A stretch of DNA of 64,000 nt from Anaerolineales bacterium UBA2200 (GCA_002327925.1 DCVA01000043.1:5948-69947), one strand, 5' to 3'. Positions 47,004 through 60,374 are shown, numbered from the stretch's first letter. Made by a program: numbers and translations. Notes: generated by a model from the letters alone, not told the origin.

Positions 47004-47032
47004 TTGTCACGGTCAGTGATGTATGCTATACT
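47004..47032 (+). promoter_or_regulatory. nrdR-nrdD promoter TTGTCA-17-TATACT (extended -10)
   Basis: Hexamers with TG-n before -10. Confidence 0.7.
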
Positions 47033-47277: not shown

Positions 47278-47766
47278 ATGCACTGTCCCTACTGCCAGGA
47301 AGGAGACTCGCACGTAATCGATACTCGCACCGTCGGCGACAGCATCCGGCGACGTCGCGAGTGTCCACGGTGTGGGCAACGCTTCACCACCTACGAACGA
47401 TTGGCGCCGGTCAGCCTTTTCGTGGCGAAACGGGATGGCCGACGTGAGCCTTTCGATCGCGAAAAGCTGTATGCCGGGATCTACCATGCCTGCGCCAAGC
47501 GACCGATTTCCGATGACCAGATACAGACTGTTGTTGGCCATGTGGAAAATGACCTCTACGCCCTCGGCAAGGCCGAGGTGGAGAGTCAGGTGATCGGCCA
47601 GATGGTCATGCAGGAGTTGCGCGGCCTGGACGATGTCGCTTATGTGCGTTTTGCCTCTGTGTACAAGTCCTTCAAAGACATCAATGGTCTTGTTGAAGAG
47701 ATCAAAAAGTTCAAGCGCTGGAAGACGGGTGATCCGCAGGAGGAGCCTGTGGAGGCCGATCACTAG
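47278..47766 (+). CDS. nrdR: Transcriptional repressor NrdR
   Basis: MHCPYC...VIDTR, RRRRECPRCGQRFTTYE, an ATP cone and VAYVRFASVY. Confidence 0.97.
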   Translation: MHCPYCQEGDSHVIDTRTVGDSIRRRRECPRCGQRFTTYERLAPVSLFVAKRDGRREPFDREKLYAGIYHACAKRPISDDQIQTVVGHVENDLYALGKAEVESQVIGQMVMQELRGLDDVAYVRFASVYKSFKDINGLVEEIKKFKRWKTGDPQEEPVEADH

Positions 47767-47785
47767 GTTCTGGGAGAGGCTAGCT

Positions 47786-49855
47786 ATGGACGCTCTTAAC
47801 ACGGCCCAGCAGCAGAAACTGCGGACAGCGGTCGCCATCGCTTCTGTTCAGAAGCGAGATGGTCGAGTTGTGGCGTTCGACCAGAAGCGAATCGATGCAG
47901 CCATTTTGAGAGCCTTTGTAGCGGTCGGCCTGGGCGAGCCGGCCGACCGAGCTCACGCGCTTTCGGAGCGAGTGGTGGACCTGCTCGTGCAGCGTTACGG
48001 CGCGCAGGGCTGTGCCCTGGTGGAGCAGATCCAGGACGCGGTGGAAGAGGTGCTGATTCGCGCAGGCGAGGTGAAGGTCGCCAAGGCCTATATCCTCTAC
48101 CGGGCTCAACGCTCCGAGGTGCGCGACACGACCAGGCTCATGCTGGACGGGATGAAGCTGGTCGACGACTATATCGACAGGGCTGATTGGCGTGTCAGCG
48201 AGAACGCTAACATGAACTACTCGCTGCAGGGCCTGAACTTTTACGTCGCCTCGAGCATCGCGGCCAAGTACTGGCTCAACAAGATCTACCCGGCTGAGGT
48301 GTGCCTGGCACACCAAGAGGGAGATTTTCATATTCACGACCTGGGCATGCTGGCGACCTACTGCTGCGGCTGGGATCTACGTGACTTGCTGGTGCGCGGC
48401 TTTGGTGGAGTGCGGGCCAAGCTCGAGAGCAGGCCGCCTCGACACCTGCGCACGGCTCTGGGACAGCTCGTCAACTTTTTCTACACCGTTCAGGGCGAGT
48501 CTGCAGGGGCGCAGGCCATCTCCAACTTTGACACGCTCCTGGCGCCTTTCGTCCGGTACGATGGCCTAAACTACGCGGGCGTGAAGCAGGCGTTGCAGGA
48601 GTTCGTCTTTAACATCAATGTGCCAACGCGGGTAGGCTTTCAGACGCCGTTTACCAACGTTACCATGGACCTGACGCCGCCCTCTACTCTGGCCGAGGAA
48701 GGGGTCATCGCCGGCGGAAAGCTCCAGCAAGACACGTATGGCGACTTTCAGCCGGAGATGGATCTCATAAACCGGGCGTTCGCCGAGGTGTTGTTGGAGG
48801 GTGATGCTCGCGGCCGGGTGTTTACCTTCCCCATTCCCACCTACAATGTCACCAGCGACTTTGACTGGGATAACCCGGTTCTGGAGCCTCTCTGGAGAGT
48901 GACCGCCAAGTATGGCATCCCCTATTTCGCCAACTACATTAATAGCGACCTGCGCCCCGAGGATGCACGTTCCATGTGCTGCCGATTACGACTGGACAAT
49001 CGAGAGCTTCGTAAGCGAGGTGGCGGACTGTTTGGCGCCAACCCGCTCACTGGCAGCATAGGGGTAGTTACCATCAATCTGCCACGTGTGGGGTTCCGCG
49101 CCACGAGTGAGGATGACTACTATTTCCGCCTGAGCCAGACCATGGACGTGGCCAGGACGTCCCTCGAGATCAAGCGCAAGGTCCTCGAACGCCACACGGA
49201 GGAGGGGCTGTACCCTTACAGCCGCCACTATCTCCGTTCAGTCTACGAGTGCTTTGGCTCGCACTGGGCCAACCATTTCTCGACCATCGGCATTGTTGGG
49301 ATGAACGAGTGCTGCGAGAACTTTCTCGGAGTTGGCATAGCTCACCCGCAGGGCAAGGATTTTGCCGGTGCGGTCCTGCAGTTCATGCGACGCAAGCTGC
49401 AGGACTATCAGGATGAGACAGGCCATCTCTACAATCTGGAAGCGACTCCGGCGGAGAGCGCCAACTATCGCCTGGCGAAGGCGGATCGGAAGCAGTACCC
49501 GGGAATCGCGACTGCAGGGACCCCCGACACGCCATACTACACCAATTCCACGCACCTTCCAGTGGGCTGCACGGACGACCTGTTTGCTGCGCTTGAACAT
49601 CAGGATGAACTGCAGACCCTCTACACGGGAGGGACTGTATTTCACGCCTTCTTGGGTGAGCAGGTTGACGACTGGAGGCAGGCACGCCTGCTCGTTCGGC
49701 GCATATCAGAGCGCTTCCATCTGCCCTACTTTACGCTGACGCCGACGTTCAGCATCTGCCCGGTTCATGGTTACCTGAATGGTCGGCACAGCTATTGCCC
49801 CTACGATCACACGCCCGAGGAGTTGGCGCGTTTTGGCTCGGCTGCCTCGGCATAA
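47786..49855 (+). CDS. nrdD: Class III anaerobic ribonucleoside-triphosphate reductase, catalytic part lacking the glycyl-radical C-terminus
   Basis: N-terminal ATP cone (VQKRDGRVV.FD), ENAN, GESAGAQA, finger loop SMCCRL, YNLEATPAES and YTGGTVFH. It ends after the metal site CPVH...CPYDH with no RxxGY motif. Confidence 0.93.
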   Translation: MDALNTAQQQKLRTAVAIASVQKRDGRVVAFDQKRIDAAILRAFVAVGLGEPADRAHALSERVVDLLVQRYGAQGCALVEQIQDAVEEVLIRAGEVKVAKAYILYRAQRSEVRDTTRLMLDGMKLVDDYIDRADWRVSENANMNYSLQGLNFYVASSIAAKYWLNKIYPAEVCLAHQEGDFHIHDLGMLATYCCGWDLRDLLVRGFGGVRAKLESRPPRHLRTALGQLVNFFYTVQGESAGAQAISNFDTLLAPFVRYDGLNYAGVKQALQEFVFNINVPTRVGFQTPFTNVTMDLTPPSTLAEEGVIAGGKLQQDTYGDFQPEMDLINRAFAEVLLEGDARGRVFTFPIPTYNVTSDFDWDNPVLEPLWRVTAKYGIPYFANYINSDLRPEDARSMCCRLRLDNRELRKRGGGLFGANPLTGSIGVVTINLPRVGFRATSEDDYYFRLSQTMDVARTSLEIKRKVLERHTEEGLYPYSRHYLRSVYECFGSHWANHFSTIGIVGMNECCENFLGVGIAHPQGKDFAGAVLQFMRRKLQDYQDETGHLYNLEATPAESANYRLAKADRKQYPGIATAGTPDTPYYTNSTHLPVGCTDDLFAALEHQDELQTLYTGGTVFHAFLGEQVDDWRQARLLVRRISERFHLPYFTLTPTFSICPVHGYLNGRHSYCPYDHTPEELARFGSAASA

Positions 49856-49897
49856 GTGAATGCTCAGAAGCTTCTAGATTCGGAGGACGGTGCGAAC

Positions 49898-50101
49898 ATG
49901 ACAAGTGTCGACGAGAAGCAGGTGATCAGTGACGCCCAGGCGGGGCCGAGGGAAAAGAAGGTGGCGTGCGAGGTCTATTCGCGCATTGTTGGATACCTTC
50001 GCCCGGTAGCCGACTGGAACCGCGGCAAGCAGCAGGAGTTTTCGGAGCGCAAGACATACGGTGTCCCGCAGTCCGAGAGATCCGATACCTCCTCGAACTA
50101 G
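49898..50101 (+). CDS. Stand-alone NrdD C-terminal glycyl-radical domain (about 67 aa)
   Basis: CEVYSRIVGYLRPVADWNRGKQQEFSER is the NrdD glycyl-radical motif. It has its own GGAGG SD and is in frame with nrdD behind a TAA. Confidence 0.85.
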   Translation: MTSVDEKQVISDAQAGPREKKVACEVYSRIVGYLRPVADWNRGKQQEFSERKTYGVPQSERSDTSSN

Positions 50102-50169
50102 GATTGAGATTGCACTGAGAGCTAGGACACTCCGCACTCGGCTCCCGTGCGCAGAGGCGGCCGTGGTGG

Positions 50170-50994
50170 TTGATCCTAGCTTCCCCCGGTTCGTCCTGGC
50201 TGCGGATCCCTTATCCGCGCGGGGTTTCTGTGCTGTGTAAGAGCGTGTTGCGCACCTCGGTGATTGAGTTCCCCGGTCATATCGCGGATGTGGTGTTTGT
50301 CGGCGGATGCAACTTCCGCTGCCCGTACTGCTATAACCGTGATCTAGTGCTGAACCCCGGCCTGCTTCCGGACCTTCCGGCCGAGCTAGTCTTCGAGGAC
50401 GTCAAGGGACGCCGGTGCTTTGTGGATGGCATCGTGATTACAGGGGGGGAGCCCAGCCTGCAACCGGAGCTGGACGCCTTTCTGACCCGGGCGCGCGAAG
50501 CGAACTTGCTGACCAAGCTCGATACAAACGGCTACCGACCTGATGTGCTTCGGCGTTGCCTGGAAAAGCACCTGGTGAGCTACATTGCGATGGATGTCAA
50601 GACCAGCCTGCCGCGCTATCGGAGCGTTGCAGGCCTGGATGTGGATCACCGGCTTCTGCTGGAGTCCATCTCACTGATCCTGTCGTCGGGAGTCGAACAC
50701 GAGTTTCGGACCACGGTTGTGCCGGGGTTGGTCGAGCTGAGTGATGTCGAGGCCATCTCGCGGGAGATCCGCGGAGCACAGCAATACTACCTCCAGGCGT
50801 TTCGCCCATCTCCGACAGTAGGATGGGGCAACGAAGTGCCCGTTGGCTCCCCGGATCCGGAATTGATGCAGCAGATGGCGCGGGTAGCGTCACGGAACGT
50901 CCATCACGTCGGAGTTCGAGGCCTCGTACAGGGTGATGGAACGACTTCTCGGGAGGCGATCCGGATTGACAGTCAGGAGGCCCTGACCAGCTGA
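50170..50994 (+). CDS. nrdG: Anaerobic RNR activating enzyme (radical SAM); start uncertain
   Basis: GCNFRCPYCYN (CxxxCxxC), ITGGEPSL, KLDTNG and EFRTT. Confidence 0.92.
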   Translation: MILASPGSSWLRIPYPRGVSVLCKSVLRTSVIEFPGHIADVVFVGGCNFRCPYCYNRDLVLNPGLLPDLPAELVFEDVKGRRCFVDGIVITGGEPSLQPELDAFLTRAREANLLTKLDTNGYRPDVLRRCLEKHLVSYIAMDVKTSLPRYRSVAGLDVDHRLLLESISLILSSGVEHEFRTTVVPGLVELSDVEAISREIRGAQQYYLQAFRPSPTVGWGNEVPVGSPDPELMQQMARVASRNVHHVGVRGLVQGDGTTSREAIRIDSQEALTS

Positions 50995-51025: not shown

Positions 51026-51952
51026 ATGAGAATGCGCATACGACGGGATGTTCAGCAAGTCATTCGCGAGGGCGGCGCCGCTGTGGCACTCGAATCGACT
51101 CTGATCACTCACGGGCTGCCATACCCAGATAATCTGCGCGTCGCCCAGCAGATGGAACAGGCGGTGCGCGACGAAGGTGCCGTTCCGGCGACTGTGGCTG
51201 TTCTGGCTGGAGTGCCCACGATTGGGATTGACAGCGTTCAGCTGGAGTACCTTGCCCAGGCCAAAAACGTGCGCAAGTGCAGCAGAAGGGACCTGCCCAT
51301 CGTGCTGGCGACCCAGTCTGATGGCGCTACGACGATCTGCGGCACGCTGATCCTGGCACACCTGGCTGGAGTCCGTGTGTTTGCCACGGGTGGTCTGGGC
51401 GGAGTTCACCGTGGCAAGGTGTTCGACGTCTCGGCAGACCTCGACGAACTGGCCCGCACGCCAATGATTGTGGTCTGTTCGGGGCCCAAGGCGCTGCTGG
51501 ACCAGGAGGCGACTCGCGAAAGGCTTGAGACGCTGGGCGTACCCATCCTCGGGTACGGCACGGACCGTGTTCCCGCCTTCTACTCGCGTGAGAGCGACCT
51601 GGCGGTGGACCTGCGGGTGGAGAGCCCGGATGAGGTCGCCGGCGTTGCCATGGCGCGCGACAAGCTTGGCCTGATGGCTGCGGTCGTGGTCGGCGTTCCA
51701 GTTCCTGTCGCCGACGAACTCCCTCGTGCACAGGCCGAAGAGGCGATTCGCCTGGCCCTGCATATGGCCGAGGAGCAGGCGATTCGCGGTGAGGCGGTCA
51801 CACCCTTCTTGCTCCCTCGCATTACCGAGCTCACCGAAGGGCGCAGTCTTGTTGCCAACCGCAGTCTGCTGATCAACAACGCGCGGGTGGCAGCGCGTGT
51901 GGCACATTCATTGGCGCTGGCGAGGCAGAGGGAGCGCAGGCCGACCATTTAG
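51026..51952 (+). CDS. psuG: Pseudouridine-5'-phosphate glycosidase family (IndA-like)
   Basis: VALESTLITHGLPYP, GATTI, FATGGLGGVHRG, DVSADLDEL, V.SGPKALLD, VTPFLL and N..L..NNA. Confidence 0.93.
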   Translation: MRMRIRRDVQQVIREGGAAVALESTLITHGLPYPDNLRVAQQMEQAVRDEGAVPATVAVLAGVPTIGIDSVQLEYLAQAKNVRKCSRRDLPIVLATQSDGATTICGTLILAHLAGVRVFATGGLGGVHRGKVFDVSADLDELARTPMIVVCSGPKALLDQEATRERLETLGVPILGYGTDRVPAFYSRESDLAVDLRVESPDEVAGVAMARDKLGLMAAVVVGVPVPVADELPRAQAEEAIRLALHMAEEQAIRGEAVTPFLLPRITELTEGRSLVANRSLLINNARVAARVAHSLALARQRERRPTI

Positions 51953-52032
51953 CGATGGGGGCGGCCGCTATCGGGACAGGGGCGGTCGTGGTTGAGGTCG
52001 TGTCCACTTCATTCGTTCTTCCCGGAGGGTCT

Positions 52033-53184
52033 ATGGCCTACACACCCACACCGATGGATGACCAGATCCTGAGCCTGCCGGATCTGATGTCGGAGTGCCT
52101 GCCGGCGTTCACGGCAGACATCAGGACCCTCATCGGTCCGGCGCTGGCAGGCGACCTGCGTCAGGTATACATCATTGGGTGCGGGGATTCGCACATGGCG
52201 GCCGTCGGCTGCGAACTGGCGTTCTGCAGTCTCGCCGGAGTGCCGTGTCGGGCCATGGCAGCACTGCACTTTGCGCGCTACACTGCACCGTTTCTGGCGG
52301 ATCCACAGGGCACTCTGGTCATTGGCGTATCCACATCCGGAGAGGTGGCGCGTACGCTGGAAGGATTGCGCCTGGCGCACCGGGCCGGAGCAAGAACCGT
52401 CGCGCTGACTGCAAACCCATCGAGTCGACTTGCTCTGTCTGCGCACTACGTGCTTTCTGCGAAGATATCCCCCTCCAAAGATCCATCCCCTGCTCCGGGG
52501 GTTCGCTCCTACATGGCTTCCTTGCTGGCTCTTGATCTGGCGGCCGTTCGGATAGGCGAGGCAAGCGGCTTTCTCAGCCGTGAGGCGGCTCTGTTGGCAC
52601 GTGACGAGTTGCGTTCTCTGTCGGAGGCACTGGCGGCGGCCGCAGAGACAGGCTTCGACCGCACGGAGCGCTGGGTGGAGTCGAGCATGGACGTTGGCGA
52701 GTTTGTTTTCCTGGGCGGGGGGCCTGCCTATGGCACGGCTCTGTATGGTGCCGCCAAGATGTTCGAGGCCAGCGGCGACTCGGCTGATGGACAGGACCTG
52801 GAGGAGTGGGCGCATCTGCAGTATTTCGCCCGGGAGGTTGCCACGCCGACCGTCATCATCGATTGCCGCGGGCGCAGCTACGGTCGCGCGTGTGAGGTAG
52901 CAGACGCGGCACGAGCAATTGGGCGGCGCGTCCTCGGAGTCCTGCCGGAGAACGAGACACACATTGCCTCAAGGGCGGAGCTGGTGTTCCCGTTGTCCGC
53001 TGCGATTCGCGAAGCTTTCGCTCCCCTGTTGTATAGTGTGCCGGTCATGTGTCTGGCCAGCGAGCGGGCCAAGGTACTCGGTGAGACCCCTTACCGTGGG
53101 TTCGCTGGAGGCCGCAGTCGAAGCGAAGGTGGCGGTGTCAGCCGCGTTCAGAGCAGCGCCCTGACGGAGGAGGCAGAAGGATGA
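52033..53184 (+). CDS. Double SIS-domain sugar-phosphate isomerase/deglycase (GlmS-C/FrlB/AgaS-like)
   Basis: IGCGDSHMAA, VSTSGEVART, GVRSYMAS and GGGPAYGTALYGAAKMFE...EEWAH. Confidence 0.85.
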   Translation: MAYTPTPMDDQILSLPDLMSECLPAFTADIRTLIGPALAGDLRQVYIIGCGDSHMAAVGCELAFCSLAGVPCRAMAALHFARYTAPFLADPQGTLVIGVSTSGEVARTLEGLRLAHRAGARTVALTANPSSRLALSAHYVLSAKISPSKDPSPAPGVRSYMASLLALDLAAVRIGEASGFLSREAALLARDELRSLSEALAAAAETGFDRTERWVESSMDVGEFVFLGGGPAYGTALYGAAKMFEASGDSADGQDLEEWAHLQYFAREVATPTVIIDCRGRSYGRACEVADAARAIGRRVLGVLPENETHIASRAELVFPLSAAIREAFAPLLYSVPVMCLASERAKVLGETPYRGFAGGRSRSEGGGVSRVQSSALTEEAEG

Positions 53185-53990
53185 CGACACTGACCGTGCG
53201 TGGCAGAGCGGTGCGCACCGTCGCTGCGCTCCACCTGCCCGCCATGCCCTCGGCGGCGCAGCCAGGCGCCCGCTCTCTCTCTGAGGTGGAAGACTATGCC
53301 CTGCGCAATGCCCGCATTGCATTCGAGAATGGCATTGAAGCGCTGTACATCCAAGACCTGGGTGACTCGCCTGTGGCGCCGAGCGCTACGCCGCACACCA
53401 TCGCCAGGATCACTGCGGTGGGCAGTGCACTACGACGGTCCTTCCCCGATGCGCCGCTGGGGGTCTGCCTGATGGCACATGGAGCCGAGGCCCCGCTCGC
53501 GGTGGCGCAGGCCATGGATGCTGACTTTGTCCGGCTCAAGGTTTACCTCGGTGCCATGGTGAAGGCGGAGGGTGTGCTGCAGGGCTGTGCCTGGGAGGCA
53601 ATCCAGTATCGAGCGGCAATTAGAGCGGAAGAGGTCCGAATCCTGGCCGACGTCTACGACCGCACAGGTATACCCCTGGCGCCCTTGCCCATCCGAGAGG
53701 CGGTGAGGCAGGCCACCACCTACGGCCACGCCGATGGAGTTGTCCTGACCGGGGCCGACTTGGGGGAGACGCTGCGAATGGTCAGTGAGGTGCGCGGTGC
53801 CGAGCAGGGAGTGCCCTTGATCGCTGGTGGCGGGGTCACGGTAGAGACTGTGGCTCGGGCTCTCGGAACCGCCGATGCAGTGATTGTCAGCACCGCTCTC
53901 AAGCGAGTGGCCTCGTGGAGCCCAGCTGGACTCGAGTCTGACTGGGACCCGCAGCAGGTGCGTGCTTTCGTGCTCGCTGCCGCCCTGTAG
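53181..53990 (+). CDS. BtpA/SgcQ family TIM-barrel protein
   Basis: ALHLPAMP, D.P, PLGV.L, DFVR...GAMV..EGVLQG, ADGVVLTG, GGGVT and IVSTALK. Confidence 0.85.
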   Translation: MTTLTVRGRAVRTVAALHLPAMPSAAQPGARSLSEVEDYALRNARIAFENGIEALYIQDLGDSPVAPSATPHTIARITAVGSALRRSFPDAPLGVCLMAHGAEAPLAVAQAMDADFVRLKVYLGAMVKAEGVLQGCAWEAIQYRAAIRAEEVRILADVYDRTGIPLAPLPIREAVRQATTYGHADGVVLTGADLGETLRMVSEVRGAEQGVPLIAGGGVTVETVARALGTADAVIVSTALKRVASWSPAGLESDWDPQQVRAFVLAAAL

Positions 53991-54036
53991 AGTCGCCTCC
54001 ATCGTTGAGAGCAGAACATCGAGGGGGTACTGGACG

Positions 54037-55032
54037 ATGACCCCTGAGTACCTGACTTCGGGCGGATTACGCATTGACTTTGTGATCACGGCGGACGGGC
54101 AAGTTCACCTCCGTGAGATGGGGGGTAACGCCATCTACTCCGCTGTGGGGGCACGCGTCTGGGCGGCGGATGTGGGCATCTTGTCGCGAATTGGGGCGAA
54201 CTATCCTCATGAGTGGCTGCAGAGGCTCGAGAACGCAGGAATCAGAACGGAGGGTATCCTTCGCGTTCCCGGCTGGCAGGACATGCGGACTTTCTACGCC
54301 TACCGCGATATGGACCGACGAGAGGACACGGACCCGGCAGGTCATTTCGCTGAACTCGGCCTGTCTCTCCCGCAGGACCTGGTCGGCTATGTAGACTCCA
54401 CTCCCGGCCAGGCCAGCGAACAGTACATCGCGGTCTCACCACGGCCGGAGGACATACCTCTCTCGTTTGGCAGCGTCAAAGCGGCGCACCTGGCTCCGCT
54501 GGAGCTGCAAGCTCACCGCTCTCTGTCTGCCGCTCTGGGCTCCTCCGGGATTCGCCTTACTCTCGATCCCGGTGAGCGCTACATGAAGCCAGAGCTGTAC
54601 GAAGATGTGCTGGCCATTCTGCGACACGTAGATGCCTTCCTGCCCAGCGAGCAGGAGGTAAGATCCCTGCTCGGACCCATCGATTTCTGGTCTGCTGCGT
54701 GCCGCTTCGCAGAGACGGGCCTCGAAGCAGTCGTGATTAAGGTTGGTAGTCGCGGAGCTATGGTGTATGACTGCCTGGATCGCAGACGATGGCTTGTCCC
54801 GGCGTTCCCAACGCACGTGGTTGACGTAACCGGCGCGGGAGATGCCTTCTGCGGAGGGTTCCTGGTGGGATTCCAGGAGACGGCGGACGCCGTGCTGGCT
54901 GCCTGCTATGGAACGGTCTCCGCTTCGTTTGTGCTTGAAGGTTTTGGAGCTCTTTACGCGACACGCTTTCGGCGCGGGGAGGCAGAGGTACGTCTCTCGC
55001 AGGTCAAGGCTCAGGTGCAGCCGATTGCGTGA
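54037..55032 (+). CDS. PfkB-family carbohydrate/nucleoside kinase (PsuK- or FrlD-like candidate)
   Basis: GGNAIYSAVGA, FLPSEQE, KVGSRGA and the PfkB signature VDVTGAGDAFCGGF. Confidence 0.9.
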   Translation: MTPEYLTSGGLRIDFVITADGQVHLREMGGNAIYSAVGARVWAADVGILSRIGANYPHEWLQRLENAGIRTEGILRVPGWQDMRTFYAYRDMDRREDTDPAGHFAELGLSLPQDLVGYVDSTPGQASEQYIAVSPRPEDIPLSFGSVKAAHLAPLELQAHRSLSAALGSSGIRLTLDPGERYMKPELYEDVLAILRHVDAFLPSEQEVRSLLGPIDFWSAACRFAETGLEAVVIKVGSRGAMVYDCLDRRRWLVPAFPTHVVDVTGAGDAFCGGFLVGFQETADAVLAACYGTVSASFVLEGFGALYATRFRRGEAEVRLSQVKAQVQPIA

Positions 55033-55156
55033 TCGGAGGAAGGCGCATTTACGGCTGCACCCGCCTTCTGCCACGGCTCCAGAGGCAAAGTAGAAGCCCG
55101 CCCTGCGACATGATGCAGCAGGCAAAGGTCACGTTGGTGCGTGAAGGAGGACCGAA

Positions 55157-56128
55157 TTGCCGTCTAAAGTAATCCCCTTGGCCCAGGCGGCCGCCCTGGT
55201 ACCAGATGGCGCCACCCTCTCTCTTGGCGGCTTTACCACTCAGCGTCACCCGATGGCTTTTGTCTACGAACTGATCAGGCTCAGGCGACGCAATCTCTAC
55301 CTGTTTGGGCACTCTCCGGGCGGCGACTGGGACATCTTGATCGGTGCCGGCTGCGTGAAGCGTGTGGAACTGGCCTATGAGGCAGACGAGGCTTTTGCCA
55401 CCATAGGCCCGCGCTGGCGACTCGCTGCGGAGCGCGGGCAAATCGAGTGGGAGGACTATTCCAACTTTTCGATGGTGGCAAGGTTCACGGCAGGAGCTAT
55501 GGGTATTCCCTTCATGCCTCTGCGTAGTCTGCTGGGCAGCGATGTGCTGGCGCGGGGGGGTCTGAGCGCAGAGGCTCGTGCTGCCGATCCCCGAACGTCG
55601 GCACTCAAGCTCTTTGAGATGCAGTCTCCCTTTGACCCCCGCGACCGGGTGGTGCTGGTTCCTGCCATACACACAGACTTTGCCATACTTCATGTGCAGA
55701 AGGCGACGGCAAACGGAATCGTGCGCATCGAGGGGCAAACGTTCGCAGATGTCCAGCAGGCCCTCTGTGCCGAAACAGTGATCGTCACTTGCGAGGAGAT
55801 TGTGGCTGAGGAATCACTGCGCAGCGAGCCGGAACGGAACCTGATCCCGATGTTCGCTGTGCACTATGTGTGCCCCGTACCGTGGGGCGCGCACCCCTAT
55901 GCCGTGTTCAACTGCTACGACTATGACCCCCGCCAACTGAAGAGGTACCATGGGTGTGCGGAAAGCGATGCGGGTTTTCAGACCTATCTTGATCAGTACG
56001 TACTTGGCGTCAAGACCCATGTCGAGTACTTGAACGCGATTGGGGGCGCTGAGCGCCTGGAATCGCTCGCGGCGGACCCGGCCTATGGCTATCGCCCCGA
56101 CCTGCAGCGGAGGAGGTTGGACGAATGA
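55157..56128 (+). CDS. Family I CoA-transferase subunit A (glutaconate CoA-transferase GctA-like)
   Basis: LGGFTTQRHPMAFV.ELIR, RF.AGAMGIPFMP, D.AILHVQKA..NG and PWGAHP. Confidence 0.9.
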   Translation: MPSKVIPLAQAAALVPDGATLSLGGFTTQRHPMAFVYELIRLRRRNLYLFGHSPGGDWDILIGAGCVKRVELAYEADEAFATIGPRWRLAAERGQIEWEDYSNFSMVARFTAGAMGIPFMPLRSLLGSDVLARGGLSAEARAADPRTSALKLFEMQSPFDPRDRVVLVPAIHTDFAILHVQKATANGIVRIEGQTFADVQQALCAETVIVTCEEIVAEESLRSEPERNLIPMFAVHYVCPVPWGAHPYAVFNCYDYDPRQLKRYHGCAESDAGFQTYLDQYVLGVKTHVEYLNAIGGAERLESLAADPAYGYRPDLQRRRLDE

Positions 56129-56889
56129 GCGACTACACATTGACTGAGCTCATGGCAGTGACAGCTGCCCATGAGATTCAGGAGGGTGAGGTGGTGTTCG
56201 CCGGCACAGGTCTGCCGATGCTGGGCGCCATGCTGGCGCAGAGAACTCACGCACCGGGCTGCTGTATCATCTTTGAGGCGGGGACAGTGGCGAGCCAACT
56301 TGCGCACCTGCCCATGTCGGTCGGTGATCCGCGGGCGATGCGAGGAGCAGCCACGGCAGCCGGACTGAGTGAGGTATTTTCGTACGTACTGCAGGCCGGG
56401 CGCGTGGATGTGGGCTTTCTCAGCGGCGCCCAGATCGACCGGTATGGCAACATCAACAGCACCTCCATCGGGTTGGACCCGGGTCACCCTCAGGTTCGCT
56501 TCTCCGGGAGCGGTGGCGCCTGCGATATTGCCTGCCTGGCCAGGCGAACCGTGATCATTGCACTTCACGAGAAGAGGCGCTTTCCGGACAAGATCCACTA
56601 TGTGACCAGCCCCGGATGGCTGGAAGGGGGAGAAAGCCGCGAGAGGGCGGGGTTGGTTCGTGGCGGTCCGGATGTGGTGGTAACGACCAAAGGAGTGATG
56701 CGCTTTCGCCCTGATACCAAGGCGATGTACCTGGCCAGCTACCATCCCGGCCTGACTGCCCTTGACGTGGCGCAGGACACGGGTTTTCCACTCGATGTGA
56801 GTGAGGCGGTACAGACGCCTTCCCCGGATCCCCAGGAGCTGCGCATTTTACGCGAGGTGGTGGATCCTGAGAGGGTGTTCCGCAAGTAG
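56125..56889 (+). CDS. Family I CoA-transferase subunit B (GctB-like)
   Basis: VFAGTGLP, IFEAG (catalytic Glu position), VGFLSGAQIDRYGNIN, GSGGACD and YVTSPG. Confidence 0.9.
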   Translation: MSDYTLTELMAVTAAHEIQEGEVVFAGTGLPMLGAMLAQRTHAPGCCIIFEAGTVASQLAHLPMSVGDPRAMRGAATAAGLSEVFSYVLQAGRVDVGFLSGAQIDRYGNINSTSIGLDPGHPQVRFSGSGGACDIACLARRTVIIALHEKRRFPDKIHYVTSPGWLEGGESRERAGLVRGGPDVVVTTKGVMRFRPDTKAMYLASYHPGLTALDVAQDTGFPLDVSEAVQTPSPDPQELRILREVVDPERVFRK

Positions 56890-56915: not shown

Positions 56916-57311
56916 CTAGGCGGCCCACATGGTTTGAATGTGGCGTATCGCCTGTGTGCTGGTGCGGCGGTATCGCGCACCATCCGCCACCAGCAGCGCC
57001 AGGATCAGCTCCTCCTGATCAACGTGAAAGAAGCGGCAAACGAGCCGGGAGCGATTCCGGTCGTAGAGGCTCACTTCGTCAAGCTCCCCCATGCCCAGTT
57101 CTGAGCGCGCGTCCTTGCTGACCTTGCGCAGCATCGCCACCATAGCCGCAGTGAGCTGCGCATCGAGCGAGGAGGGTGACGTGGCGATGGGGAGGCCATC
57201 GCTGGTAGCCAGAATGGCAGCCTGAAACGAACCCTGACGACTGAGCTCAGTAAGCACCTCTTCGAACCGGGTCGGGGCTGGCGTCTGCGCGGTGCTGTGC
57301 TCTGGTTGCAT
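56916..57311 (-). CDS. Roadblock/LC7 domain protein
   Basis: F..VL..L...G.FQAAILATSDGLPIA and AAMVA, consistent with the roadblock topology. Confidence 0.85.
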   Translation of the reverse strand: MQPEHSTAQTPAPTRFEEVLTELSRQGSFQAAILATSDGLPIATSPSSLDAQLTAAMVAMLRKVSKDARSELGMGELDEVSLYDRNRSRLVCRFFHVDQEELILALLVADGARYRRTSTQAIRHIQTMWAA

Positions 57312-57378
57312 GGCTTGTATGCCTCCATTCTGACTCGTTTGTCTCGGCATGGTGTTTCCTGGTCGATTGGCTCGTTAG

Positions 57379-57861
57379 CTAGCGTCCGAATGTCTTGAGA
57401 AAACCATTAAGGCCCCGCGCCTTGGCCGGAGTCGTCTCTTCCGAAGTCGGGGCAGCCTGTGGCTGGGGAGGTTCGGGTCTGAATGCAGGTACTGTCGGCA
57501 CCTCAGGACGGTTCTTCAGTGCGGCCTGAAGCTTGGGAATGGCGACGTCGGCTGTGAGGTTGAGCAACGGGATGCTAATGCGCGGCTCGCAGACGATGCA
57601 CAGGCATCCCCCCTGGAGCGGCTTGAGGATGACTCTGCCTCCGGTGTAGACGAGGTCGACATCGACCTTCTTGCGCTTGGATGCACGCAGGCCTGCAATA
57701 GCCTGCGCTGCGGTGTGCCCGACGACAGACAACGCATGATCGCGGGGCAGGGTGCGCAGAGAGTGCGCCAGTATGTCGCCCGTCTCATCGCAGACAAAGC
57801 AGCCATTCACTCCTACCACGTTGCTGATAGTCCGCAGGACGTCTTCCATATCCCACCCCAT
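57379..57861 (-). CDS. Roadblock/LC7 (MglC-like) protein with a Pro-rich linker and amphipathic tail
   Basis: L..I..VVGVNGCFVCDETG.ILA, DLVYTGGRVIL and NL..D (MglC-like). C-terminal GLNGFLKTFGR. Confidence 0.75.
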   Translation of the reverse strand: MGWDMEDVLRTISNVVGVNGCFVCDETGDILAHSLRTLPRDHALSVVGHTAAQAIAGLRASKRKKVDVDLVYTGGRVILKPLQGGCLCIVCEPRISIPLLNLTADVAIPKLQAALKNRPEVPTVPAFRPEPPQPQAAPTSEETTPAKARGLNGFLKTFGR

Positions 57862-57863
57862 TC

Positions 57864-58550
57864 TTATCGAAGGATGCTCGCTATTTTGGCGGCGACCAGA
57901 GCTGGAGAGGCCCTCTCTGCCAGCAGGAGCCCTACATAGAAATCCGGTCTCTCGACAATAAGGAGTCTTGCCTTTGTACCCAATGTCTCCACAACACCGC
58001 GCTCGAATGGGCCTAGGCCGAGACTTTCCCCGATCTGCGAAGCTGCGCTGCCCACAAAGACCGCAACTGCACCCTCCTTCTCAGGATCGGCTGCCATCTC
58101 AGCGGCGATGACGTTACCATCGCGGGCCACGAGAACCACGCCTGTCACGCCGTCGACTGAGCGCAACCTTGCGGCATGGTTATCGGCCTCGGTGGCAGGC
58201 ACGTCGGGCTCCAGGTCTTCTGGGAGTCCGGCAAGCTCAGTGCTTCTCTCATCGACACGCTGCATGCCTTCAAGAAGCAGCGTCGACCAGGGAGTTTGCA
58301 CCGTCTGACGAGGGGCGGGAATGCCCGGCTCCAGCTCAAACTCACCGTCTTCCCAGGCGAGCAGTTCGTGGATCACCTCGTCGCCTTCCATGTCGCCGAG
58401 TGTCATGTGGACGATGTTACCTTCGGCGAAGAAGATGACGGCCTCCTGATCATTGTGCCACACCTCAAGTCGGGCCTGGTTCATCTCGTTGCAGTTCACC
58501 GAAATGAGACTGGCCAGGCTGATATCCTTGAGTTTGCCCCTCACCGCCAT
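57864..58550 (-). CDS. DUF4388 (PatA-N-like) domain fused to a roadblock domain
   Basis: RGKLKDISLASLI, IFFAEGNIVH, LLAWEDGEFE and LLLEGMQRVDE, then LRSVDGVTGVVLVARDG. Confidence 0.85.
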   Translation of the reverse strand: MAVRGKLKDISLASLISVNCNEMNQARLEVWHNDQEAVIFFAEGNIVHMTLGDMEGDEVIHELLAWEDGEFELEPGIPAPRQTVQTPWSTLLLEGMQRVDERSTELAGLPEDLEPDVPATEADNHAARLRSVDGVTGVVLVARDGNVIAAEMAADPEKEGAVAVFVGSAASQIGESLGLGPFERGVVETLGTKARLLIVERPDFYVGLLLAERASPALVAAKIASILR

Positions 58551-58570
58551 CGGGTCACCCTCCATTCGAG

Positions 58571-59146
58571 CTACTGCAGTCTTGACGTGAGTATGCCTAT
58601 GATCGCCTTCAGTGTGTCCAATACGCCGATCCCTTGCGTCGCCACGGCCGGAAAGCACCGTGCCCCGTTGCTTCCCAGAAGACCTCGAAGAGTATCCGGC
58701 GGCAATGCCCCAGGCAGATCCTGCTTGTTGAACTGCACTACCATGGGAAAATCATCCACCCTGTGACCCATCCTGGCAACCAGCTTCTGCAGCTCAATCC
58801 AGGTCCTGAGATTGTCCGGCAAACGGTTACGTTGTGAGTCAACGACCAGTACAATCCCGTCTGCGCCCTGCAATACCAGCTTGCGCGTCGAAGCGTAGTG
58901 GACCTGGCCAGGTACCGTGTAAAGGCTGAACCTCGGCCGCAACCCCCTGATCTCTCCGAGATCCAGCTGCAGGTAGTCAAAGAAAAGAGTTCGGTCCGCG
59001 CGTGTCTTGAGTGAGATCAACTCGCTGCGCATACCCGGATTGGTACGGGCGTGGATGTACTGCAGGTTGGTTGTCTTCCCACTCAGAGCCGAGCCGTAAT
59101 AGACGATCTTGAGATTCAGTTCGTGCTGCCTGGAGTTGATGAACAT
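58571..59146 (-). CDS. mglA: MglA-family small Ras-like GTPase
   Basis: LKIVYYGSALSGKTTNL, RTLFFD, YTVPGQVHY, LVLQGADG, QFNKQDL and AVATQGIGV. Confidence 0.95.
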   Translation of the reverse strand: MFINSRQHELNLKIVYYGSALSGKTTNLQYIHARTNPGMRSELISLKTRADRTLFFDYLQLDLGEIRGLRPRFSLYTVPGQVHYASTRKLVLQGADGIVLVVDSQRNRLPDNLRTWIELQKLVARMGHRVDDFPMVVQFNKQDLPGALPPDTLRGLLGSNGARCFPAVATQGIGVLDTLKAIIGILTSRLQ

Positions 59147-59231
59147 GAATGTTCAGTATGCTAGGGCGACACGGGGCACACGCAGACCAGTGCACCCGCG
59201 TCCCACTCACGACTGCCAGGCAGCTCGACGT

Positions 59232-60200
59232 TCACCTTCGCCCGTTCGTGGGAGTGGCATCGAACAGGCTATCCAATTGCGCTTGGACCTCGGTTGTCAG
59301 GTCGCTACCCAGATCTACCGATTCTGACTCGCCAAACTGTTGGGTGCCCAGCACTGCTGCTGCCCTCTTGGCGAAGATCCATACCGCGCCGGCCTGGCTC
59401 TCGTCTCCGAAAACGGTAGCCAATAGCAGATCCCTGGTGACCTCATAGGTATATATGTGGCAATCGGGACCCTGGTGGTGGCTGGCACGGAAGTCAGAAG
59501 CGTTGCCAAGCTGCTTGGCCAGCTCTGCTGCGGCGGCGAAGGTTGCGGCGATGAGGGCGCCCAGGGTCGGTAGGTGCAGACCAAAAGTCTGACCCACCGA
59601 GTCGACAGGATAGCCGGCCGCGGTTATGAGAAGGACACACCGCGCGCGCGTGTCACTCAAAAGTCGCTCGAGGATGCCATGACCCGTTGACACGGGGATC
59701 GGCGCAGGCACTTCACCTGACCCAATTTGCTGCTCTGCCGAGCGACTGCCGCCTCGAGCGGCGACAGGCAGGACATCCGCATCGCCGGCCACCGAGATGT
59801 CCGGTGCAGCCTTCCCGGTGCGAGGCCTGGTGGCACTAACCACCTCCATCATTGCTCGGACGGTGATCGGTTTGGCGAGATATCCGTCCAGCTTCCATCG
59901 CTGCGCTGTGTCGCGCAGGTCGGTGGCGCTGGAGCGGCCGATCACCAGGACCCTTGCCCCTGGGGAGGTGCTGTGGGCCGCTCTGGCGAACTCTGCGATG
60001 GCCAGTCCCGGCGTCTCCGCGTCGACCAGCAGAAGCGAGAACGTTCCGCGACGCAACATGGACCAGGCGTGTCGCCCGTCACCGGCCCACTCAACCGTGA
60101 AGCCGTTGCCACAGCTCTGAAGAGCTTCCATTACTGCAACTCTGGTCAAGGGTTCGGTATCAACAACCAGTACGGGTTTCGGCTCGTTTCGCTCTGCCAT
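59232..60200 (-). CDS. Response-regulator receiver domain fused to an MglB-like roadblock (GAP) domain
   Basis: N-terminal VLVVD..., LLLVD(AE) and LAKP. C-terminal VLLITAAGYP, LGALIAATFAAAAELAKQLG, HQG, LATVF and G.V. Confidence 0.85.
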   Translation of the reverse strand: MAERNEPKPVLVVDTEPLTRVAVMEALQSCGNGFTVEWAGDGRHAWSMLRRGTFSLLLVDAETPGLAIAEFARAAHSTSPGARVLVIGRSSATDLRDTAQRWKLDGYLAKPITVRAMMEVVSATRPRTGKAAPDISVAGDADVLPVAARGGSRSAEQQIGSGEVPAPIPVSTGHGILERLLSDTRARCVLLITAAGYPVDSVGQTFGLHLPTLGALIAATFAAAAELAKQLGNASDFRASHHQGPDCHIYTYEVTRDLLLATVFGDESQAGAVWIFAKRAAAVLGTQQFGESESVDLGSDLTTEVQAQLDSLFDATPTNGRR

Positions 60201-60374
60201 TAGCCCTCCCTGCATTGCCTTGCGCCTCTCATTAGGCTACACGCGGGTTCTGCCTGACTGCAGAACTGCAATACCGCCGGGACGTACAATCACTGACGCG
60301 CCACGGGCGCAGACGTCACGCCAGAGACCCGCGAAGCACTCCTCAACTGTTAGGACGTAGATCATCGCGTGTGG

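Follow-up and report, generated by a model that had tools for sequence, protein, structure and literature searches.

A conserved SIS-BtpA-PfkB gene module beside psuG in an Anaerolineales genome is probably tied to nucleoside-type catabolism

The pairing of psuG with a gene for a PfkB-family kinase, as in psuK-psuG (yeiC-yeiN) of Escherichia coli, is the layout that Preumont and co-workers reportedly described in 2008 for the pseudouridine pathway. The E. coli sgc operon, which is not known to have an assigned function, encodes a member of the BtpA family (SgcQ) together with the Rpe-like SgcE, the M42 peptidase SgcX and phosphotransferase system (PTS) proteins. In the archaeal pentose bisphosphate pathways, a nucleoside phosphorylase, a PfkB-type ribose-1-phosphate kinase and a ribose-1,5-bisphosphate isomerase are followed by RuBisCO or an aldolase. 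In the frl and fra deglycation systems, a PfkB kinase works beside an enzyme with two SIS domains, and the spacing of 16 residues between a Glu and a His is a hallmark common to GlmS and the FrlB/FraB deglycases (PMC10285752). Here, a stretch of 64,000 nucleotides from Anaerolineales bacterium UBA2200 (GCA_002327925.1 DCVA01000043.1:5948-69947; the window) was analyzed with a focus on positions 51026-56889, where genes for PsuG, a double-SIS protein, BtpA, a PfkB kinase and the two subunits of a coenzyme A (CoA) transferase follow one another.

These six genes are best explained as two unrelated units, psuG-SIS-btpA-pfkB (51026-55032) and a GctAB-like CoA-transferase (55157-56889), an explanation that is favored as a whole with modest confidence. 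The core of the first unit is the SIS-BtpA-PfkB triad, a separate, widely conserved and uncharacterized module, and it is quite likely that this module is functionally tied to nucleoside-type catabolism. In the original prediction, all six genes were combined into a single undescribed pathway for a modified nucleoside or glycoside; a nucleoside-linked, undescribed pathway that includes BtpA is retained here, but the CoA activation and the role of the kinase as pseudouridine kinase (PsuK) are not. The gene identities assigned in that prediction were right, and all six genes are present on the plus strand with strong family matches. The genes of the region are as follows.

51026-51952, plus strand: psuG, pseudouridine-5'-phosphate glycosidase of the Indigoidine_A family (PF04227, 379 bits)
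Open reading frame (ORF) from 51955, likely start ATG 52033, end 53184, plus strand: double-SIS gene (PF01380), similar to the GlmS isomerase domain and FrlB
53181-53990, plus strand: btpA, BtpA/SgcQ-family predicted phosphate-binding (beta/alpha)8 barrel (PF03437, 129 bits)
54037-55032, plus strand: pfkB (PF00294, 78.7 bits), from a divergent BtpA-associated clade named PfkB_W here; not PsuK
55157-56128, plus strand: GctA-like CoA-transferase alpha subunit (CoA_trans subunit A; PDB 1poi_A, 217 bits), a neighbor outside the module
56125-56889, plus strand: GctB-like CoA-transferase beta subunit (CoA_trans subunit B; PDB 1poi_B, 234 bits), a neighbor outside the module
47278-50994, plus strand: nrdR, nrdD (split) and nrdG (TIGR00244, NF006126 and TIGR02495, each above cut-off), the syntenic anchor of the island in the family

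The conservation of the triad was assessed among BtpA homologues collected as 80 species-representative loci from GTDB genomes, in 79 of which BtpA was called. These 79 loci come from Chloroflexota, Clostridia and Alphaproteobacteria, and their genes were labeled through homology to a reference set drawn from the proteins of the window and of a Thermanaerothrix locus. The following associations were found.

SIS within 10 kb of BtpA: 74 of 79 loci
PfkB within 10 kb of BtpA: 74 of 79 loci
SIS within 3.5 kb of BtpA on the same strand: 71 of 79 loci
PfkB within 3.5 kb of BtpA on the same strand: 71 of 79 loci
Inosine-uridine nucleoside hydrolase (IUNH) near BtpA: 35 of 79 loci
PsuG near BtpA: 12 of 79 loci
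TrpF-like gene near BtpA: 31 of 79 loci
Any of IUNH, PsuG, PNP, Bmp or TudS near BtpA: 52 of 79 loci
CoA-transferase near BtpA: 0 of 79 loci

With SIS and PfkB each found at 74 loci and nucleoside genes at 52, across several phyla, the earlier view of BtpA, SIS and the PfkB kinase as a conserved unit linked to nucleoside handling was supported. In Anaerolineae, the triad ends a long nucleoside operon with the order ADP-ribosylglycohydrolase, MtaD-like deaminase, TrpF-like protein, two PfkB kinases, YjbQ, two IUNH, two further PfkB kinases, SIS, BtpA and PfkB, which brings the content of this super-operon to five PfkB kinases and two IUNH. The order in Alphaproteobacteria is GntR-(PfkB)-SIS-BtpA-Bmp/PnrA ABC transporter-IUNH. 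The triad of Ktedonobacteria and Clostridia is located downstream of a GntR/UTRA regulator and an ECF transporter, with partners that vary among dihydropyrimidinase, an allantoinase-like enzyme, TRZ/ATZ deaminases, FAA-hydrolase, a hydantoin-racemase-like gene and a metallo-beta-lactamase-fold protein. At some of these loci the amidohydrolases score 405 bits on the dihydropyrimidinase model TIGR02033 (above cut-off) and 425 bits on the allantoinase model TIGR03178. In Clostridia and Ktedonobacteria, the S-components of the ECF transporters at these loci gave only a sub-threshold match to QueT and no NCBIfam match.

A TrpF-like (phosphoribosylanthranilate isomerase, PRAI) paralogue was also observed in the nucleoside islands (e.g., at 1990-2673 of locus L003), where it often adjoins PfkB or diverges from psuG. 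All of its matches to TrpF models fall below the cut-offs, and no homologue of this PRAI-like protein was found in the window's own genome at E <= 1e-5.

In the lineage of the window, the nucleoside gene linked to the triad is psuG. The order psuG-SIS-btpA-pfkB recurs in independent genomes (loci L001, L002, L087 and L110) and is therefore more than a chance arrangement; it is also found at L033, where SIS_T is the better-scoring SIS reference, and at L024 and L111, where two IUNH genes are inserted between psuG and SIS. The longer arrangement ftsQAZ-nrdRDG-psuG-SIS-btpA-pfkB is kept in the relatives L001 and L087 and in the same-genus genome G001 (locus L110). The nrdR-nrdD-nrdG order was found at L001, L087, L110 and L112, and synteny of the nrd genes with the module is limited to the window's family (the window, L001, L087, G001 and G008).

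The same-family genome G008 carries an island of about 25 nucleoside-related genes directly behind nrdRDG (L112 8354-19017 and L111 3809-14198). Its first part consists of nrdRDG, TudS (2-thiouracil desulfurase family), PfkB, a second BtpA paralogue (BtpA2), GntR/UTRA, a PurD-like ATP-grasp ligase and an M42 peptidase. The second part comprises a Bmp ABC transporter, ADP-ribosylglycohydrolase, PfkB, PsuG, two IUNH, SIS, BtpA, PfkB_W, PfkB_e and two PNP/UDP-type phosphorylases. Of an island of this type the window retains just four genes, and its psuG-SIS-btpA-pfkB therefore look like the trimmed remnant of a nucleoside-scavenging island, cut to a minimal four-gene set with PsuG. The window's own genome (88% complete) encodes one PsuG and one BtpA, with a Bmp ABC transporter on contig C13 and a phosphorylase on C39; no IUNH was found in it. 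Across 40 relatives from the same class, close matches to BtpA have a patchy distribution, which is the pattern expected of an accessory module.

The PsuG encoded at 51026-51952 looks canonical and has kept the catalytic Lys. It aligns over residues 3-294 with the E. coli PsuG structure 4gij (267 bits), and its score on PF04227 compares with a cut-off of 25.2. The structures 4gij and 4gim differ only by a K to A change at E. coli Lys166, the Schiff-base lysine, and that residue aligns to the Lys of 'CSGPKALLD' in the query; the stretches 'ALESTLI', 'FDVSADL' and 'NNA' are conserved as well. As in E. coli psuK-psuG, an orthologue-level PsuG with its catalytic Lys shares a cluster with a PfkB-family kinase; unlike in E. 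coli, SIS and BtpA lie between the two and the kinase is not of the PsuK type. The kinase exceeds the PF00294 cut-off of 25.8 and has the motif 'DVTGAGDAF' (DTxGAGD type), in which at least 95% of 20 clade members share D263, T265, G266, G268 and D269; its NxxE motif is SEQE. Its top family matches are ribokinase and IolC (64 bits), and solved PfkB kinases match its C-terminal half only.

Plain pseudouridine catabolism, in which this kinase would serve PsuG as pseudouridine kinase as in yeiC-yeiN, and SIS and BtpA would be unrelated passengers, draws on the canonical PsuG, on a PfkB kinase within the same co-directional cluster and on the fact that psuG-PfkB pairs are a known layout of that pathway. 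The scores of the kinase speak against it. On the PsuK model NF007355 the kinase reaches 20.6 bits (cut-off 540) and against the PDB PsuK 7vkp 23 bits, while a PsuK-like gene outside the window (C52:177887-178750), unlinked to the single psuG of the genome, has pseudouridine kinase NF007355 as its best family, with 191 bits, also below the cut-off. The assignment of the cluster kinase as PsuK was rejected on these scores and on the better candidate on C52. In addition, the PfkB_W clade adjoins SIS and BtpA in Ktedonobacteria and Clostridia, including genomes without a nearby PsuG, and passengers would hardly be expected from genes that overlap by 4 nt and of which SIS is close to BtpA on the same strand in 71 of the 79 loci. 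Plain pseudouridine catabolism is therefore considered very unlikely. Among other kinases of this kind, a ribokinase-like gene is located on C36 (289 bits), and the PfkB paralogues of the nucleoside islands show sub-threshold matches to ribose-1-phosphate kinase models.

The closest solved relative of the SIS enzyme is the GlmS isomerase domain (1moq, E = 1e-15). Its residues K268, E271 and H287 align with GlmS K485, E488 and H504, with a conservation of at least 95% across 70 homologues, and Glu271 and His287 are exactly 16 residues apart. The enzyme scores 89-90 bits on GlmS models (cut-offs 381-418) and lacks the N-terminal glutaminase domain; no conserved Lys equivalent to the Schiff-base Lys603 of GlmS was found in the C-terminal tail. 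In the phosphate loop S126-T-S128-G129-E-V131-A-R133, Val131 and Arg133 replace Thr96 and Glu98 of FrlB (PMC10285752), and the score on the FrlB equivalog NF008481 is 20 bits (cut-off 430).

These features bear on a fructosamine-like deglycation of Amadori compounds or N-glycosylamines, in which the PfkB kinase would correspond to FrlD/FraD, the SIS enzyme to FrlB/FraB releasing an amine or ureide, and BtpA to a FrlC-like epimerase or rearrangement enzyme. Rather than ordinary nucleoside sugars, such a system would take sugar adducts of N-heterocycles or ring-opened pyrimidine nucleosides as its substrates. The module resembles the frl systems of E. coli and B. subtilis (FrlD, FrlB and FrlR) and the fra system of Salmonella (FraD and FraB) in its PfkB kinase and two-SIS-domain enzyme, in the Glu-16-His dyad and, in other phyla, in the GntR/UTRA regulator that completes the frl/fra layout (PMC10285752). 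The missing equivalent of GlmS K603 also fits deglycation, as do the TrpF-like (Amadori-type) gene in 31 of the 79 loci and the dihydropyrimidinase, allantoinase-like enzyme, TRZ/ATZ deaminases and hydantoin-racemase-like gene added at some loci. However, the SIS enzyme scores far lower on the FrlB model than on GlmS (20 versus 90 bits) and has the Val131/Arg133 loop, BtpA is without a frl/fra counterpart, the transporters in this nucleoside-type context are of the nucleoside (Bmp/PnrA) or ECF type and not of the amino-acid/opine type, and the cluster in the window is without an amidohydrolase. Deglycation of this kind is regarded as unlikely.

BtpA belongs to a large family (PF03437, BtpA/SgcQ) without an assigned reaction or a solved structure detectable by sequence search, and it can now be tied to SIS and a divergent PfkB in nucleoside islands of several phyla. 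It scores far above the PF03437 cut-off of 30 and reaches 130 bits on TIGR00259 (below the cut-off of 153). It does not fall within the cyanobacterial BtpA of photosystem I biogenesis, as the score on that model (NF045918) is 118 bits (cut-off 400) and the host is of an nrdDG-bearing Anaerolineae type without photosystem context. The closest BtpA homologue is 70% identical, and a search of PDB sequences gave no match at E <= 1.

An AlphaFold2 prediction (pLDDT 85, pTM 0.87) models BtpA as a (beta/alpha)8 barrel of the ribulose-phosphate type without a close solved relative. Its Foldseek neighbors are Rpe (ribulose-phosphate 3-epimerase), TrpA, TrpF, PcrB, KGPDC, ThiE and KDPG aldolase (TM 0.5-0.6, 11-17% identity), with Rpe, TrpA, TrpF, KGPDC and KDPG aldolase nearest at a TM of about 0.55-0.6; these are only remote barrels, so no reaction could be assigned from the fold. 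The glycines conserved behind strands 6 and 7 are consistent with the standard phosphate site. R118, D185, G131 and F116 do not vary even among distant paralogues, and Q58, K120, D157 and D160-G163 set the SIS-linked clade apart. A literature search on SgcQ, PF03437 or BtpA with nucleoside, Amadori or kinase returned nothing relevant and no function assigned to SgcQ. The module is like the sgc operon in its PF03437 member and, in the G008 island, in an M42 peptidase as well. Unlike the module in the window, the sgc operon is not known to include a SIS or PfkB partner.

The same class contains another BtpA clade that is only distantly related, at 27-32% identity (L099, L100, L102-L104 and L112 9951-10715). 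Its members directly adjoin ribokinase-like PfkB genes or are located between two IUNH genes, without SIS, which suggests that the pairing of BtpA with a kinase is older than the link to SIS.

Taken by homology, PsuG would cleave pseudouridine 5'-phosphate to uracil and ribose 5-phosphate, and the triad would act on a sugar or sugar-bearing fragment freed from nucleoside-like compounds. The divergent PfkB kinase would first add a phosphate handle; the GlmS/FrlB-like SIS enzyme would then carry out a 1,2-proton shift through the Glu271/His287 dyad, which could be an aldose-ketose isomerization in which a C1 or C2 substituent might also be lost; and BtpA, translationally coupled to SIS, would act as an epimerase, aldolase or isomerase that moves the ketose phosphate on towards central metabolism. 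This order and chemistry of the three steps are put forward tentatively, and may well prove different. The proposed logic, in which a PfkB kinase first acts on a pentose derived from a nucleoside and the product is isomerized and then cleaved or converted, is like that of the archaeal pentose bisphosphate pathways, but here a SIS-type enzyme serves as the isomerase and BtpA takes the third step; none of the clusters examined showed a homologue of R15P isomerase or RuBisCO. The module can be described as a variant of known nucleoside and sugar-phosphate catabolic clusters whose triad reactions are undescribed.

The substrate may be a ribose that carries a modification, a pyrimidine riboside with an opened ring or an adduct of the Amadori type. 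The modified nucleoside of the original prediction is a reasonable substrate because a TudS-family gene is present in the G008 island and dihydropyrimidinase- and allantoinase-like genes stand beside the triad elsewhere, but its acidic aglycone is not retained. What follows is a context in which BtpA can be tested, with a substrate shortlist (ribose derivatives, modified pyrimidine nucleosides and ring-opened products) and a compact set of proteins.

Several points weigh against a nucleoside-linked module separate from the CoA-transferase. The substrate of the triad, the order of its steps and its products are inferred. The genome encodes RpiA (C7, 201 bits) and Rpe (C9, 254 bits), with RpiB absent, and ribose 5-phosphate thus needs no extra isomerase or epimerase; because both genes exist, a role of SIS and BtpA as substitutes for missing pentose-phosphate enzymes was rejected as unlikely. 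At 27 of the 79 loci, roughly one third, explicit nucleoside genes are missing within 10 kb; short contigs make up part of this group, and others, with ECF transporters and ring amidohydrolases, could serve a non-nucleoside N-heterocycle glycoside. Finally, the 124 nt between pfkB and the CoA-transferase genes contain no recognizable terminator, and read-through is possible.

A more specific proposal, judged improbable, is that the triad provides an undescribed O2-independent route for the sugar part of modified ribonucleosides from RNA turnover. The fate of 2'-O-methylribose is largely unexplored (PMC12709175; PMC6278475), and the only demethylase reported in PMC12709175 requires O2. With 2-O-methylribose as the substrate, the kinase would form the 5-phosphate, from which the GlmS/NagB-II-like SIS enzyme would produce ribulose 5-phosphate by eliminating methanol via an enol ether; the ribosyl-ureide left by the ring opening of dihydrouridine would be an alternative. 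If this route were true, BtpA would represent a new class of ketopentose-phosphate enzyme, and a module acting on sugars from modified nucleosides would supply a missing piece of RNA recycling by anaerobes.

The CoA-transferase pair very probably lies outside the pathway, with its own role, and is merely adjacent. Both subunits match the A and B chains of the glutaconate CoA-transferase GctAB of Acidaminococcus fermentans (1poi) over their full length (217 and 234 bits) and share its two-subunit layout; the pair shows no link to the nucleoside module. Glu51 of the GctB-like subunit, in 'FEAG', is roughly at the position expected for the catalytic Glu of GctB. Homologues of the pair are 75-85% identical across many metagenomes, in unrelated contexts, and are thus better conserved than BtpA.

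The six-gene pathway, in which a carboxylated modified nucleoside or C-glycoside would be broken down by the kinase, SIS, BtpA and PsuG, with the acidic aglycone turned into its CoA thioester by the GctAB-like transferase, could appeal to co-directional genes with a gap of 124 nt and no terminator-like site in the window, and to a CoA-transferase pair near the module in G001 (L110) and in the close relative L087 too. In both of the latter, however, 0.8-1.0 kb and an ORF on the minus strand separate the pair from pfkB, and at L001 the pair is absent and the cluster stops after pfkB. The pair was found at none of the 79 related loci, in two unrelated genomes its close homologues (76-79% identical) form a stand-alone two-gene unit, and a paralogous pair exists on C12. 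It was on this absence, spacing and stand-alone occurrence that the CoA-transferase was rejected as a pathway member and is taken as a neighbor. The six-gene pathway is most improbable, and CoA activation of an acidic aglycone is abandoned with it, which removes an unsupported premise for experiments. A lack of joint conservation had been named in the original prediction as grounds for giving it up; psuG-SIS-btpA-pfkB are kept together, but the CoA-transferase pair is not kept with them.

Two further observations concern these transferases. The paralogous GctAB-like pair outside the window (C12:108489-110196) is 37-47% identical to the pair in the window. In G001, the GctA-like gene reads as two overlapping ORFs of 165 and 136 residues (L110 12680-13550), which may be a frameshift or pseudogene, or else a fault in the assembly.

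The junctions within the window agree in part with the earlier description. The nrdG stop is at 50994 and psuG begins 31 nt downstream, as had been stated. Of the "several" overlapping stop and start codons, only those of SIS/BtpA and of the two CoA-transferase subunits (4 nt each) were found, while the remaining junctions have gaps: 2 or 80 nt between psuG and SIS depending on the SIS start, 46 nt between BtpA and PfkB, and 124 nt between PfkB and the alpha subunit of the CoA-transferase. For SIS, ATG 52033 is the likelier start than 51955, because it is preceded by a GGAGGG Shine-Dalgarno ribosome-binding site (RBS) and yields a protein of 383 residues, matching the length of the homologues. 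The true start of pfkB is ATG 54037 and not TTG at 53884.

Weak consensus scans detected no terminator-like site between genes from nrdR to the beta subunit of the CoA-transferase; the sole plus-strand site of this kind found is located at 49617-49633, within nrdD, and the sole sigma-70-like promoter at 47004-47032, upstream of nrdR. These scans are weak evidence for either reading. A scan of the window with an NrdR-box consensus gave no matches, a result that says little on regulation.

Upstream of the module, in the region 47633-50101, the nrdD gene ends at an in-frame TAA (49853-49855), and the glycyl-radical motif (SRIVGYL...WNRGK) follows without a change of frame, encoded by a short ORF (about 67 residues) that starts at ATG 49899 behind a GGAGGA RBS. 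Since L001 and L087 also contain a separately called NRDD-domain ORF (59-66 residues), the class III reductase seems to be split, with a large subunit on the one hand and a small peptide that bears the radical on the other. Downstream of the CoA-transferase genes, a convergent operon on the minus strand (56916-60215) encodes Roadblock/LC7 proteins, a DUF4388 protein, a small Arf/MglA-like GTPase and a receiver-Roadblock fusion, and beyond it a large 7TM-PAS-GAF histidine kinase extends from 60472 onwards.

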